Positions 13,413 through 55,263 are shown, counted from the first letter of the stretch. The stretch is DNA of 64,000 nt from Candidatus Uhrbacteria bacterium (GCA_018673485.1 JABHCP010000005.1:64102-128101); one strand, 5' to 3'. Numbers and translations are program-made. The notes: generated from the letters alone by a model not told the origin.

Positions 13413-13623
13413 GATCCAAGCCCTGCTTGGATTAAATATCGTTTCCCGTGCTAGCCTCTCAGGCCGGCGCGGGATTGTTGCTTATAAAACAGTAGGCAGT
13501 AGGCAGTATGCAGCTGCGCCCTTCCGTAGCTTTAGCGAAGGAGGGTAGGCGGTTTTGGTAGCTTGCTTTATCGACTGTCTACCGTCTACTGCATACTGCA
13601 TACTTTTGATATACTATTCACGT

Positions 13624-14301
13624 ATGAATCACCCACACAAATCTTATTTGGACGAGTATAAGATCTCGATTGATAAACTTGTTCCTTTGACCCCTCCTGA
13701 AATCAGAGAAGAAGCTTTGAAATATTACAAAGAGCTTTCGGAGAATAATGACTCAACTGCTAAGCAGATCCATCAGGCTTTGAGCTTGATTGGTCGTAAG
13801 GAATTTCCTTATCGTAAGGCTTATGATGAGTTGTGTGCAGGGGACGAAGAGCAACGCTTGCAGGTATTGGTTTACGATCGGATCGATGAGAGCGTTAAGA
13901 AGAAAGTTCACTCAGTGGTACAACACGGCGTGATGCTTGATGACTTTGTATCAAGTGATATGTTCGAGGCTTTGGAGCCAGAGGAAAGATTGCAGATCGA
14001 TCAGGCGATATTGCTCGCCGAGGATACGCTGGACCACCAGTGTGATGAACGCGCACATAAAAAACAACAGCAGTACGAGACTTTGGTTGAGAATTGGAAA
14101 CAGGAATCATCTCGTTTGCAGGGGTTGATTGATAACTTGCGAGCAATGGGAGATCAGGATCAAAAATGGAAAGGAGAGATCGATAGCGTGTGCGATCGTT
14201 TGGAAGAAGGATGGTCGATTGTAGAGCGCGATCCGTCTGAGGAAGAGGTTAAAAAAGAACTTGAGTATTGGAATACAGTTTTGCACGAGACAGAGGAGTA
14301 A
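13624..14301 (+). CDS. hypothetical acidic, coiled-coil-rich protein
   Basis: Long ORF with low-GC codon usage; flanked by heptad CAG repeats. Confidence 0.5.
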   Translation: MNHPHKSYLDEYKISIDKLVPLTPPEIREEALKYYKELSENNDSTAKQIHQALSLIGRKEFPYRKAYDELCAGDEEQRLQVLVYDRIDESVKKKVHSVVQHGVMLDDFVSSDMFEALEPEERLQIDQAILLAEDTLDHQCDERAHKKQQQYETLVENWKQESSRLQGLIDNLRAMGDQDQKWKGEIDSVCDRLEEGWSIVERDPSEEEVKKELEYWNTVLHETEE

Positions 14302-14331
14302 AGTACGCAGTTCACAGTGCTCAGTATGCAG
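14302..14331 (+). repeat. tandem heptamers agtacgcag-ttcacag-tgctcag-tatgcag between stop codon and terminator
   Basis: Same architecture after gyrA, trxA and fusA. Confidence 0.6.
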
Positions 14332-14362
14332 TTTTAAAACCGGCCTTACAGCCGGTTTTTAT
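14332..14362. terminator. bidirectional rho-independent terminator aaaaccggccttacagccggtttt between convergent genes
   Basis: Perfect stem flanked by A/T runs. Confidence 0.65.
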
Positions 14363-15553
14363 TTATAGCTCTCTTTGTAGAAAATCTTCTATCATATTTG
14401 TGTCGACGGTGAAAGATTCTGATCGTATCCCGTCTTTTTTTCTTACCCTACGACGTACTGTTAAAGGTCTTTTATTTATTTCCGATGTTTCGACGTCTGC
14501 TGCTTCAGGAATGCTGATTATACAATCTCCGTAATTGGTTTTTATGTGAATTTGTTTATTGCCAGAATATTCATGCACCTCCATTGGTATGTCTGGCATG
14601 CTTTGTACTAATAACGCATGCGTTTTTTCAAGTTGAACATTGCGCACGTCCTGCCTGCCTCGCTCTTCTCTTTCTCTTTGTATTCCTGCCGGTATTCCAT
14701 CCTTAAGTCTAAAAAATCCAGAAATATCTTTATGGTTAAATTCTGGAACATCTGGATAGAATTCTGCCATTGTATCAGCCAGTTGAGTTTTTCTATAAAA
14801 CGGATCAGCTTGAAGTTCCTCAACTGATTTACCGAGTATGTGGTGCTCTAGATAAAATAGCCAATATGAATTGCGTAATAAAAGACTTTGTTCATCAGCG
14901 TAGTCGCTATCTAAAGGGACAACGTAGTTAGTATCGAACATTCTAAGTACTGGCTTGCCGTCGATCATTTGGACAGATAGATTTCCAAGATGTGTTAAAT
15001 CTGGAATGGCATGTGAGAATTCTGGATCCTCAGGATCTTTCGCATCAACCATTGTTTTGGTGATTCTGATGAAATCACTAAGTTGTTCAAGAAGCTCTTC
15101 TTTTTTATCAGGCTCTAAATCATCAATTTTGAATTTATCGATTGTTTTAAAGTCTTTCATTCTTTCCTGTACAGAAATAATTGTTCCTGCTGGGTGTAAT
15201 TCCTCTTTTGGTGCAAGTCTAATGATTTTTTCTCTAGGAATTAAGTTGGGAAGTTCATTGTCATAAGACCTGTGAAGATGATCGCGCTCTCTTCTTAGAT
15301 AACTGGCAACTGTTTTTGTGAGTTCTGGGTCGCGGTGAGGGCCATATTCAGGAAAGATGAAATGTGACTTAAGTCGTTTGGCTACTAGATTATCACGCAC
15401 TTTTCCAGTTTTCCTGTCTGTGTAGTCAAAGACATGCCAAAATGCACCGCTCCCGCGATGTCGAAACTTTCTTTCCTGTCTTTCATCTGCGCCTTGCTCA
15501 GCAGGTTTTTCAGATGGTACGTCTGTTGTATTTCTTGAAAATGGATTCCACAT
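14363..15553 (-). CDS. hypothetical protein with a protein-kinase-like catalytic loop (DLTHLGN ... MFD)
   Basis: Resembles the HGDLHPGN / DFG arrangement of the APH/CotH-type kinase fold; weak. Confidence 0.5.
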   Translation of the reverse strand: MWNPFSRNTTDVPSEKPAEQGADERQERKFRHRGSGAFWHVFDYTDRKTGKVRDNLVAKRLKSHFIFPEYGPHRDPELTKTVASYLRRERDHLHRSYDNELPNLIPREKIIRLAPKEELHPAGTIISVQERMKDFKTIDKFKIDDLEPDKKEELLEQLSDFIRITKTMVDAKDPEDPEFSHAIPDLTHLGNLSVQMIDGKPVLRMFDTNYVVPLDSDYADEQSLLLRNSYWLFYLEHHILGKSVEELQADPFYRKTQLADTMAEFYPDVPEFNHKDISGFFRLKDGIPAGIQREREERGRQDVRNVQLEKTHALLVQSMPDIPMEVHEYSGNKQIHIKTNYGDCIISIPEAADVETSEINKRPLTVRRRVRKKDGIRSESFTVDTNMIEDFLQREL

Positions 15554-15641
15554 ATTGACGATATTTTACCATACTTGCCCTGTACTGTAGCCACTATACA
15601 TGCTACAATTAAGGCGCTAAATTTTGGTTTTTATAGATTTT

Positions 15642-52628: not shown

Positions 52629-53099
52629 ATGCGTGGAAAGCAAGCCCCAAAGCGAAATTTGTTGCCGGACTATAAGTACGGCAATGTTTTAGTTACAAAA
52701 CTTATTAACTACGTGATGCTTGATGGTAAGAAAATTGCTGCCGAGAAGATCGTATACCGAGCACTTGAGATCGCGGCTGAGAAGTCAAAGAAGGAAGCAA
52801 TGGATGTGTTTGATGAGGCAATGAAGAACATTATGCCGTCAGTTGAGGTTCGATCACGTCGTGTTGGAGGAGCAAACTATCAGATTCCAATGCCAGTTCG
52901 TGCAGAGCGACGAGTTGCTCTTGCATACCGATGGATTTTGGAAGCTGCTCGAGCAAAAAAGGGAAAGCCAATGGCAGAAAAGTTGGCTGGAGAATTATTG
53001 GCTGCTGCAGAGGGTGAGGGTGAAGCAGTAAAGAAGAAGCTTGACGTTCAACGAATGGCAGAGGCAAACAAGGCGTTTGCTCACTTTGCTCGAAGATAA
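52629..53099 (+). CDS. rpsG: 30S ribosomal protein S7
   Basis: Typical S7 sequence. Confidence 0.95.
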   Translation: MRGKQAPKRNLLPDYKYGNVLVTKLINYVMLDGKKIAAEKIVYRALEIAAEKSKKEAMDVFDEAMKNIMPSVEVRSRRVGGANYQIPMPVRAERRVALAYRWILEAARAKKGKPMAEKLAGELLAAAEGEGEAVKKKLDVQRMAEANKAFAHFARR

Positions 53100-53122
53100 T
53101 CTTTTCAAATTAAACATTTTTT

Positions 53123-55225
53123 ATGGCACGTGAATACCCATTAGAGCGAGTTCGTAACATTGGAATTATCGCTCACATCGATGCAGGTAAGACAACTGTT
53201 ACTGAGCGCATTTTGTTCTATACTGGTAAAAAGCACAAAATCGGAGAAGTGCATGAGGGTGCGGCTGAGATGGACTGGATGGAGCAGGAGCAGGAGCGTG
53301 GAATTACTATCACATCAGCTGCTACAACATGTTTCTGGAAGGATCACAGAATTAATATTATTGACACTCCTGGCCACGTTGATTTTACAGTTGAGGTGGA
53401 GCGATCACTTCGTGTGCTTGACGGTGGTGTAACAATTTTTGATGGAGTCGCTGGAGTTGAGCCTCAGTCAGAGACTGTTTGGCACCAAGCTGATAAGTAC
53501 AATGTTCCTCGAATTTGTTTCATTAACAAACTTGACCGAACTGGAGCCGATTTCTTCAAGGATTTAGATTCTATTCACGCACGTTTAACGACTAAGGCGC
53601 ATCCAATCCAGTTGCCAATTGGAGTAGAGGACGGATTCGTTGGGCTTGTAGATTTGTTGAAGATGAAAGCTTTCCTTTATCGCGATGAGATGGGTAAAGA
53701 GGTTGATGAGGTTGAGATCCCAGAAGAATATTTGGCATCTGCTAAGGAATGGCGGGCTAAGCTTGTTGAGGCAATTGTCGAAAATGATGAGGCTGCAATG
53801 GATAAGTATCTTGGCGGAGAAGAGCCTTCATATGACGATTTAAAGAGAATTTTACGAAAAGCAGTAATTAATTTGGATATTTTCCCAGTGATGTGTGGAT
53901 CTGCACTAAAGAACAAGGGTGTGCAGTTTATGGTTGACGCTGTTGTTGACTATCTTCCATCACCACTTGATGTGCCAGCAATCGAGGGTGTGAACCCTGA
54001 CGATGAAGAGGAGAAGATCGCTTGTAAGGCATCAGACGAGGAGTCATTTGCTGCACTAGCATTTAAAATCGCAACTGATCCATTTATTGGTAAGTTGGCA
54101 TTTTTCCGTGTGTATTCTGGAACTTTGAAGGCGGGAAGTTATGTATTAAATACTGCAACTGGTAAGAAAGAACGTATTGCTCGAATTGTTCGATTGCACG
54201 CTAACAGCCGTGAGGATGTGGATGAGGTTCATGCAGGTGAGATCGCAGCTGCGGTGGGACTAAAGAACACGACAACTGGAAACACACTTTGTGATCCAGA
54301 GCACCCAATTTCACTTGAGTCAATTACTTTCCCAGAGCCAGTTATTCAGTTGGCACTTGAACCAAAGACAAAGGTTGACCAAGAAAAGATGGGACTTGCA
54401 ATTCAGAAGCTTGCAGAGGAGGATCCAACTTTCCGTGTTCGAACAGATGATGAAACAATGCAGACTATTATTTCTGGAATGGGAGAGCTTCACCTTGAAA
54501 TTATCGTTGATCGAATGAAGCGAGAGTTTGATGTTGAGGTTAACGTTGGTAAGCCACAGGTGAGCTACCGTGAAACTATTAAGATGGAAGCAGAGGGAGA
54601 GGGAAAGTATGTAAAGCAGTCTGGTGGTCGCGGACAATATGGTCACGCATGGGTACGTATTAAGCCACTTGTAAGAGCGGAAGACGATGACTCTGAGAAG
54701 ACTTTTGAATTTAATGATCAGATTAAGGGTGGTGCAATTCCACGTGAATACATTCCAGCAACTGAGAAGGGAATTCGTGAAGCGCTTGATCGTGGTATTT
54801 TGGCTGGTTACCCAGTGATTAATATTGATGCAACACTTTATGACGGATCATTCCATGATGTTGACTCTAACGAATCAGCCTTCAAGATGGCCGGATCAAT
54901 GGCATTCCAAGCAGCGGCAAAGAAAGCTAACCCAGTTATTCTCGAGCCAACTATGAAAGTTGAGGTTGTCACTCCAGAAGAGCACATGGGAACAGTTGTT
55001 GGTGACTTGAACTCAAAGCGAGCACAGATCCAAGAGATGGGAGAACGTGGAAACGTGAAGACCGTCCAGGCCACAGTTCCACTTGCAGAGATGTTTGGCT
55101 ACGCAACAAGCTTGCGTTCTATGACTCAAGGCCGAGCAAGTTACTCAATGGAATTTAACGAGTACAAAGAAGTTCCATCAAACGTTGCTAAGGAGATTAT
55201 TGAAAAGCGCGGTGGAAAGGCGTAA
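53123..55225 (+). CDS. fusA: elongation factor G
   Basis: [21 protein letters not shown]. Confidence 0.95.
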
Positions 55226-55230
55226 AAATA

Positions 55231-55263
55231 GTACGCAGTTCGCAGTGCTCAGTACACAGACAG
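55231..55263 (+). repeat. heptamer CAG repeats (gtacgcag-ttcgcag-tgctcag-tacacag-acag) after the fusA stop
   Basis: See 14302. Confidence 0.55.

Follow-up and report, generated by a model that had tools for sequence, protein, structure and literature searches.

The 64-kb window described here, that is, the whole stretch of DNA that was analyzed, comes from the genome of a Candidatus Uhrbacteria bacterium (candidate phyla radiation (CPR)/Patescibacteria; source genome, W) and carries arrays of tandem 7-nt units at the edges of several genes. These heptamer arrays can securely be assigned, as a genome-specific variant, to the polar heptanucleotide tandem repeats of intergenic DNA that have been described as cyanobacterial short tandemly repeated repetitive sequences (STRR), as long simple sequence repeats (LSSR) and as TAACTGA-type repeats: the units run head to tail, recur at dispersed loci, are mostly intergenic and have a lineage-specific sequence. 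The original prediction, made from the sequence alone, had described the arrays without recognizing that they are members of this long-known repeat class. Heptanucleotide repeats have been observed in bacterial genomes since about 1990 and are, to our knowledge, still without an accepted function; none of the papers that we found attributes a role to repeats of this kind. What is new here are the genome-specific dialects of the unit, the persistence of the array at the fusA site across a change of unit, the inverted copies on the promoter side of genes, the copy within the nusB coding tail and the single chirality of array pairs.

Four arrays follow stop codons on the plus strand. Directly 3′ of the TAA stop of a hypothetical gene for a 225-aa protein (hyp), the array AG TACGCAG TTCACAG TGCTCAG TATGCAG occupies positions 14302..14331. 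The 3′ untranslated region (UTR) of gyrA contains AG TACACAG TTCACAG ATCACAT (19376..19398), where two perfect units give way to degenerate sequence. In the trxA 3′ UTR, GTAGCAG TACGCAG TGCTCAG TTCACAG TATGAAG (34662..34696) includes the TAG stop inside its first unit and touches the terminator stem with its last; thioredoxin and thioredoxin reductase genes flank this array according to Pfam. The fusA 3′ UTR carries AG TACGCAG TTCGCAG TGCTCAG TACACAG (55230..55259), continued to position 55273 by two older AGAA-type units (ACAGAAT AAAAGAA). All six arrays listed by the original prediction are present, each within 1–4 nt of its proposed coordinates, its seven heptamers all occur in the window, and the identities of the genes (gyrA, thioredoxin, EF-G and a hypothetical protein) were confirmed. 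GyrA shows 100% identity to a protein recorded under the name Candidatus Uhrbacteria bacterium, which places the window in a CPR genome; neighboring genes were assigned with Pfam. The description of three to five tandem units after four stops holds, with only two perfect units at gyrA. As to the proposed shuffled order of the heptamers, the 3′ arrays are not random shuffles: all four open with AGTAC(G/A)CAG directly 3′ of the stop, and three of them end in a TAYRMAG unit, the gyrA array ending in degenerate units. Given this common start and, in three cases, common end, the 3′ arrays look like variants of one ~28-nt block. Such a block (AGTACGCAG-TTCRCAG-TGCTCAG-TAYRCAG) is found at several sites in the W lineage, with near-identical versions at three W loci, and appears from its sequence to have been copied between sites within this lineage.

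Altogether, six T...CAG loci and three loci with older dialects were counted in the 64 kb of the window. The window is ~89% coding, and all T...CAG arrays in it are intergenic; CAGT arrays are found in 5/42 of its intergenic regions. A search for three successive TNNNCAG units with at most one mismatch yielded 12 matches, covering five intergenic loci, against 0.37 ± 0.61 expected from shuffles, which is far above chance; the pattern CAGTNNNCAGTNNNCAG was matched 8 times against 0.02 expected. Across 26 units, the information per position amounts to 1.15, 0.49, 0.29, 0.61, 1.48, 1.76 and 1.61 bits, with T1 and C5-A6-G7 constrained and positions 2–4 free. Outside the arrays, the CAGT 4-mer is neither enriched nor avoided (observed/expected 0.97), and a restriction-modification target was rejected on this ground. 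At the gathering threshold, Rfam reported only two tRNAs in the window and no match of an array to a curated covariance model. For comparison, we used ~0.55 Mb of related Uhrbacteria loci (L121, L124, L170 and others), anchored on GyrA, the clade-specific 225-aa protein and EF-G. In ~540 kb of Uhrbacteria DNA, of which ~11% is intergenic (89% coding), self-similarity at a lag of 7 nt detected 31 intergenic arrays, compared with 1–7 for the other lags between 4 and 12. Self-similarity with a period of 7 nt is strongly intergenic in this DNA.

Each of the four 3′ arrays is followed, 1–9 nt downstream, by a strong hairpin with a T-run (4/4), as had been proposed. These intrinsic terminators, all on the plus strand, lie at 14336..14360 behind the hyp array (AAAACCGGCCTTACAGCCGGTTTTT, conserved in L121), at 19402..19435 behind gyrA, at 34696..34722 between trxA and the thioredoxin reductase gene, and at 55268..55299 behind fusA. 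The first of them can be considered bidirectional, because a convergent gene ends at 14363. The motif itself is not a terminator, in agreement with the original prediction: folding leaves the four 3′ arrays largely unpaired, the neighboring hairpins being the terminators, and single arrays have no internal dyad. Including the relatives, 8/8 single sense arrays after stops lie 5′ of a terminator hairpin, namely the four of W, the hyp array of L124, the fusA arrays of L299 and L300 and the ndk array of L301.

This arrangement suggests that the 3′-UTR arrays are docking sites for a single-strand-binding protein, through which the neighboring terminator would be influenced; we favor this landing-pad reading tentatively, at slightly below an even chance. 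The 3′-UTR array would be transcribed as an unstructured tract presenting AG once per 7 nt immediately 5′ of the terminator stem, and a single-strand-binding protein would read this tract in a 7-nt register. Candidate readers would be HutP-like or TRAP-like proteins (XAG), or proteins of the OB-fold/cold-shock type whose footprint is 7 nt. From the array, the bound protein would encroach on the 5′ arm of the terminator hairpin and thereby could tune termination or read-through (from trxA to trxB, from fusA to downstream genes) or 3′-end stability. If nothing but the AG periodicity were read, drift and homogenization would be unconstrained elsewhere in the unit, which would account for dialect turnover at conserved sites. 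A landing pad would explain the placement between stop and terminator in 8/8 cases, the persistence of the fusA array, the invariant AG and the 7-nt period. The original prediction had proposed a binding array for an RNA-binding protein or a processing signal; a binding array is reasonable, since AG recurs every 7 nt upstream of a terminator stem as in HutP sites, while no binding protein or processing event was identified and the unit sequence is not conserved. Another possibility, a passive spacer or insulator that would make termination efficient by shielding the terminator hairpin from the ribosome at the stop codon and from competing pairing with the coding sequence, appears very unlikely to us. 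It would fit the predicted lack of pairing in the arrays (the tract cannot self-pair because CAG is present and CUG absent), the clean folding of the terminators and the stop-to-hairpin distance of 30–42 nt where an array is present. Relatives and other genes, however, have just 0–25 nt of ordinary spacer, and a spacer leaves the periodicity, the core, the dialects, the inverted promoter copies and the chirality unexplained.

Comparison of the related genomes revealed that the unit is written in genome-specific dialects, with cores such as CAGT, AAAGT, YAGAA, CAGGT, TAGCT, GATGTT and AATTT in different Uhrbacteria genomes. The T..CAG dialect is shared by W and L172; the genome sampled by L170 and L299 uses AA..CAG and YAGAA; AAAGT is found in L121, L124, L149, L152 and L301, TCAGGT in L154 and TAGCT in L132. 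Within a genome, one core recurs at dispersed loci (W, L154, L149 and the L170/L299 genome), and AG is common to nearly all dialects. In the fusA 3′ UTR, the order stop, array, terminator is kept in W, L299 and L300 at 90% EF-G identity, each in its own dialect: the units are YAGAA in L299 and NNNAGAA in L300, the terminators of W and L300 are homologous, and the W array retains its two AGAA-type units at the terminator-proximal end. The same site is uninformative in a lineage with 84% EF-G identity, as an IS4/IS5-type transposase is inserted directly after fusA. In W, the region between fusA and tuf (55340–57067) contains three small open reading frames (ORFs), one of them Phd/YefM antitoxin-like, which interrupt the usual str operon; this insertion is also found in L299 and L300, its place being taken by the transposase in the 84% lineage. 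The promoter side of the 225-aa gene behaves similarly to the fusA site: an inverted array is present in ~10/28 lineages in differing dialects, with orthologous arrays in L121, L124, L134, L147/L149, L152, L170 and L172. At the fusA and 225-aa sites, position and periodicity thus persist despite sequence turnover. Identical duplicated units adjoin the gene, which suggests that newer units are ORF-proximal and older or degenerate ones lie at the far end.

The original prediction placed the motif in 3′ UTRs, which is true of four genes, with the array forming the spacer between stop and terminator; arrays also occur in inverted orientation near promoters and once in the coding tail of nusB, so that the family is not confined to 3′ UTRs. 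Upstream of the 225-aa gene (ATG at 13624), a direct array (AAAACAG TAGGCAG TAGGCAG TATGCAG, 13486..13513, plus strand) forms the left arm of a direct-then-inverted pair, whose inverted arm reads TATGCAG TATGCAG TAGACGG TAGACAG on the minus strand (13575..13609). Both copies had been predicted upstream of the gene at 13624..14301; the direct one in fact lies 3′ of the terminator-type hairpin of the upstream gene, and the inverted one abuts the −10 box, ending at the extended −10 TGATATACT (13607–13615) of this near-leaderless gene. The GC-rich hairpin in question (13445..13473, plus strand) follows a HAD-like gene (12456–13412), and its position is conserved in L121, L122, L124, L170 and L172. 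It belongs to an identical 29-nt pair (CCCGTGCTAGCCTCTCAGGCCGGCGCGGG, 12372–12400 and 13445–13473), one copy after each of two tandem HAD-like paralogues; a T-run follows the first copy and is absent after the second.

Three arrays were missing from the original prediction. One is a degenerate inverted array at 23816..23843 (minus strand; plus-strand sequence CTACTAC CTACCAC CTACTAT CTATACT), which follows the stop of a 65-aa ORF and precedes the ribosome-binding site of a YibE_F gene; its minus-strand units TAGATAG TAGGTGG TAGGTAG resemble the TAGGCAG/TAGGTAG units of W and L172. The second is an inverted CAGA-dialect array (32109..32143, minus strand; CTGGGCT CTGGAGT CTGTCGT CTGACCT CTGAAAT on the plus strand) immediately 5′ of the infB −35 TTGACA. 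The third is a run of four heptamers of the older CAGA dialect in the nusB coding tail (AAGTCAG AACCCAG AATTCAG ACTTCAG, 21590..21617, plus strand), which encodes KSEPRIQTSEP and is common to W and L170 and absent from L121, L122 and L124. The NusB C-terminal tail (21560–21646) is variable and of low complexity, with ~27 extra nt of CAGA-type heptamers in W and L170, and a repeat array appears to have been taken into the coding sequence here.

Inverted arrays therefore lie just upstream of the promoters of the leaderless genes hyp, infB and YibE_F, and at all three near-leaderless genes they are directly upstream of or overlap the −35 region, in DNA that is probably untranscribed. This location favors a binding array at the DNA level, where a cooperative small binder of double-stranded DNA on unspaced heptads (omega or MetJ/ParG-type ribbon-helix-helix proteins), a nucleoid protein or an uptake receptor would use the promoter-side arrays as operators, with those at gene ends serving as roadblocks or boundary marks. 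Such a role would also suit the pairing of direct and inverted arrays and their polarity relative to the ORF edge whatever the ORF strand. Neisseriaceae have DNA-uptake-sequence dialects, which the genome dialects recall, and the window encodes ComEC (Competence domain, 43281–44771) and a type II/IV secretion or type IV pilus ATPase (1558–3381). Uptake sequences are nevertheless unlikely, as ~one array per 7–10 kb is far below uptake-sequence densities and CAGT is found at the expected frequency outside arrays. No candidate DNA-binding protein was identified, the conserved neighboring 225-aa protein has no fold match, and the position of single arrays between stop and terminator in 8/8 cases is a better fit to a role at the transcript level. 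We rank DNA-level binding after neutral repeat DNA, considered below, and regard it as distinctly improbable.

The 225-aa gene itself (13624–14301) is single-copy and near-leaderless behind a conserved TATACT box, and arrays flank it in several genomes. Its product is an all-alpha, Uhrbacteria-specific protein with ~200 homologues and invariant Cys71 and Cys140. It was considered as the reader of the arrays and rejected: no Pfam family covers it, and the all-alpha model predicted by AlphaFold (pLDDT 84) gave no PDB fold match at E < 0.3. The stop-terminator spacer of the gene contains other repeats in relatives, namely five 9-mers CAAGACCNN in L172 (2045–2110) and, in L124 (7487–7545), a duplicated 14-mer GGGGGTGGTAGAAA followed by AAAGT heptamers, and may thus be a general hotspot of tandem duplication.

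Hairpin formation is limited to arrays that occur as direct-plus-inverted pairs. In the fold predicted for 13478–13622, the direct arm pairs with the inverted arm (−54.4 kcal/mol, z −4.3), and pairs in general fold into long beaded hairpins with 4–6 bp stems and periodic internal loops (z −2.6 to −6.6). Sense (CAGU) and antisense (ACUG) arrays could accordingly be meant to form RNA–RNA duplexes, as beaded hairpins in cis or in trans, which would create RNase III sites, 3′ stabilizers or devices for translational coupling. Besides the folding of the pairs, this idea can draw on pairs in phage contigs that adjoin the stop codon and leave ~20 nt free ahead of the next start, and on the RNase III encoded in the window. 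It is nonetheless extremely unlikely in our view: no inverted partner shares a transcript with any of the four 3′-UTR arrays of W, the two arms of a pair stay mismatched at their variable positions with no co-variation toward pairing, and the W pair at 13486–13609 lies between a terminator and a promoter.

The arrays are not restricted to Uhrbacteria. A pattern of 18 specified bases derived from the W arrays matched at least 120 loci in species-representative genomes compared with ~17 expected, the matches listed being mainly from Verrucomicrobiota, Acidobacteriota, Planctomycetota, Chloroflexota and Bacteroidota and often consisting of long arrays. Likewise, a 19-base CAGT-heptamer pattern matched at least 120 loci in viral contigs versus <1 expected; both expectations are our own calculation. 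Paired arrays share one chirality, (CAGTNNN)n followed by (NNNACTG)m: the order is direct-then-inverted in 20/21 pairs from other phyla (p = 2e-5), in 7/7 from Uhrbacteria and in 48 pairs versus 0 of the opposite order in viral contigs. Polarity is set by the ORF edge regardless of the strand of the ORF, with the CAG(T) strand reading away from the neighboring ORF, so that CAGU-type units follow stops and ACTG-type units precede starts on the sense strand. Among CAGT-oriented arrays abutting an ORF, 30 had it on their 5′ side and 7 on their 3′ side (p = 2e-4), and 20/30 directly follow a stop. These cross-phylum tests use crude longest-ORF gene calls, and for single arrays scored by the nearer ORF the polarity was not significant (30 vs. 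23, p = 0.41), significance being confined to the abutting class and the pairs. In some phage structural modules, nearly every intergenic region consists of a stop, (CAGTNNN)n, a short loop, (NNNACTG)m, ~20 nt and the next start. Examples of such array-filled IMG/VR contigs are L207, L223 (4–3110) and L235 (681–2805), with genes for tail S, head-tail connector and head completion proteins; L223 and L235 each contain four copies of a 4-unit block, CAGTGATCAGTGGCCAGTGATCAGTAAA, separated by 23-nt spacers. No host could be assigned to the array-rich contigs from the phage collection. The sole viral match to the W-specific block was an unrelated GC-rich contig and was discarded.

Several observations weigh against a landing pad on the transcript. 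The arrays are not a conserved sequence signal, as the unit differs between genomes, and ~2/16 dialects are without AG (GATGTT in L145/L146, CCATTGC in L148). Arrays are lacking in most orthologous 3′ UTRs, including those of gyrA, ndk and hyp in several relatives, and any function must therefore be dispensable: the gyrA 3′ array is missing from three close relatives (L121, L170, L172), the ndk array is present in L301 and absent from W and L299, and the hyp site carries an AAAGT-dialect array in L124 and none in L121, L170 and L172. A role confined to RNA leaves unexplained the inverted arrays, which lie in promoter-upstream DNA that is probably not transcribed, and the hyp array stands before a convergent gene, where control of read-through has no obvious target. 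The near-identical blocks at different loci indicate copy-and-paste spread, which needs no function. Finally, limited checks of the window and ~0.5 Mb of related loci revealed no HutP, TRAP or cold-shock-domain gene; these checks comprised a cold-shock motif scan, Pfam on ten window proteins and precomputed neighborhood Pfam lists, representing a fraction of each genome. The motif scan, which covered the window and 52 related loci and hence only parts of the genomes, gave no match.

Many of these points would be expected if the arrays were neutral or selfish repeat DNA, the main rival, which we consider unlikely on balance yet a serious contender. As microsatellite-like sequences lacking any function of their own, the arrays would originate from replication slippage or represent footprints of 7-bp duplications; they would spread by recombination or a mobilizing activity and accumulate in tolerant spacers between stop and terminator or between terminator and promoter, with polarity and core reflecting the generating mechanism. 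The fast turnover with absence at most orthologous sites, the genome-specific dialects, the near-identical ~28-nt blocks at three W loci, the hypervariable hyp spacer with its other repeat types in L172 and L124, the occupation of just 5/42 intergenic regions of the window by CAGT arrays and the array absorbed into the nusB tail all suit this explanation, as do two ideas relayed in PMC4679880, that heptanucleotide LSSRs originate by slippage (Mrazek 2007) and that such repeats are transposon footprints. Neutral drift does not readily account for a core that is invariant while three positions vary freely, for the persistence of sites through a full change of unit (fusA; upstream of hyp in ~10/28 lineages), for the strict chirality or for compact phage structural modules with arrays in nearly every intergenic region. 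For three arrays, copy number showed no polymorphism among seven independent assemblies of the W strain, which also speaks against slippage-driven repeats, but with low power, since these assemblies are 100% identical without single nucleotide polymorphisms (SNPs) anywhere. The arrays likewise do not resemble phase-variable simple sequence repeats, as their units are non-identical, their location is the 3′ UTR and their copy number is constant in the seven SNP-free assemblies.

A broader proposal reaches beyond Uhrbacteria: the heptad arrays could be a cross-phylum gene-boundary signal in bacteria and phages, written by a copying mechanism and read by a single-strand-binding factor. As a whole, this is clearly unlikely at present. 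In such a system, a dedicated copying mechanism would place (xAG-N4)n tracts at the intergenic edge next to the ORF, and a factor in 7-nt register would set termination, read-through or the fate of the 5′ and 3′ mRNA ends; the fixed chirality and the change of dialect at conserved positions would be the footprints of writer and reader. In the streamlined, small genome of a CPR bacterium, one would not expect housekeeping genes to be followed by 30-nt insertions of no use. In the fusA 3′ UTR and at the hyp promoter, the unit has been replaced and the array kept, which makes a constraint on position and periodicity separable from a constraint on sequence. The polarity rule, with the CAGT strand directed away from the adjacent ORF and pairs ordered direct-then-inverted, holds across phyla and phage contigs. 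A reader protein, should there be one, would be a widespread and so far unrecognized regulator of termination or mRNA ends; if there is none, the polarity rule points to a directional repeat-generating mechanism.

The window contains further intergenic features. Three long palindromes centered on CCGATCGG (e.g., ATTTTCGTGATTGGTCCGATCGGACCAATCATGAAAAT) lie at 19450–19487 and 19540–19570, downstream of the gyrA terminator, and at 32069–32102, in the interval that separates a terminator from the infB promoter; their form suggests operator sites of a dimeric DNA-binding protein. Repeated segments of ~30–40 nt (CCGCATTGT.TGGATA.CGTTAGC) are present at 23360–23500 beside two tRNA genes (23212–23363). 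The lysine/alanine-rich C-terminal tail of GyrA (19300–19370) resembles histone-like tails and varies in length among relatives.

Among known repeats, the repetitive extragenic palindromic (REP) sequences and their mosaic elements (BIME) are species-specific, intergenic and often located after stops, occur singly or as inverted hairpin pairs and turn over rapidly; in them, selfish spread may go along with an influence on mRNA 3′ ends. The W arrays are similar in being intergenic, genome-specific, single or in inverted pairs and of fast turnover, but a REP unit is an imperfect palindrome of 20–40 nt, whereas single W arrays are without dyad. The spread of REP depends on RAYT (IS200/IS605-like) transposases, and no RAYT gene was noted in the annotated neighborhoods of the window, where no search aimed at RAYT was made. 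The omega repressor of plasmid pSM19035 binds unspaced WATCACW heptads in direct and inverted orientation, in sets of 7–10 that are known from promoter regions only. Contiguous 7-bp units in both orientations at promoters are common to both systems; the omega operators are plasmid-borne and promoter-only, whereas most W arrays lie in 3′ UTRs and no ribbon-helix-helix partner was identified for them.

HutP offers a parallel for a reader. It recognizes three XAG motifs with 4-nt spacers, i.e. a 7-nt period, reading strictly A and G only, and TRAP also reads XAG (PMC2425495). The first of these motifs are located in unpaired RNA immediately before a terminator stem, and from there HutP binding advances into the terminator in the 5′-to-3′ direction (PMC2425495). 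The W arrays match this in having 3–5 CAG/AAG motifs at 7-nt spacing, predicted to be unpaired, 0–9 nt 5′ of a stem. They differ in that HutP needs two XAG-rich sites flanking a GC stem, 12–17 nt apart, and W has no second site, no XAG triplet series being present within or after the four terminator hairpins of the window. Moreover, HutP sites are found in a 5′ leader, whereas W arrays follow stop codons, and arrays of the W family are also located on DNA upstream of promoters.

The class to which the W arrays are most directly comparable is that of the TAACTGA repeats of Beggiatoaceae, Cyanobacteria and Bacteroidetes (MacGregor 2015, PMC4679880). Heptanucleotides are the commonest long simple-repeat unit in prokaryotes according to Mrazek 2007 as quoted there, and 7-bp transposon footprints have been mentioned for such repeats (PMC4679880). 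S1, Csp and CsrA were proposed as readers of the TAACTGA repeats (PMC4679880), and CspB binds with one protein per heptamer (PMC4679880; PMC1904285). Of the 170 sets in BOGUAY, 147 have their ACTG strand directed toward a start codon, and one Flexibacter set directly after a stop has the reverse orientation, the same polarity as in W (PMC4679880). The reverse complement of the unit, TCAGTTA, becomes TTATCAG in the register of W and fits TNNNCAG. Both groups consist of tandem 7-nt units, in sets of 2–6 or more, at many dispersed, intergenic loci with a lineage-specific sequence. The W arrays are set apart by units that vary at three positions with only a 4-nt core fixed, by a location mainly in the stop-terminator spacer instead of 5′ of starts, by a CPR host with leaderless genes and by the change of dialect at orthologous positions.

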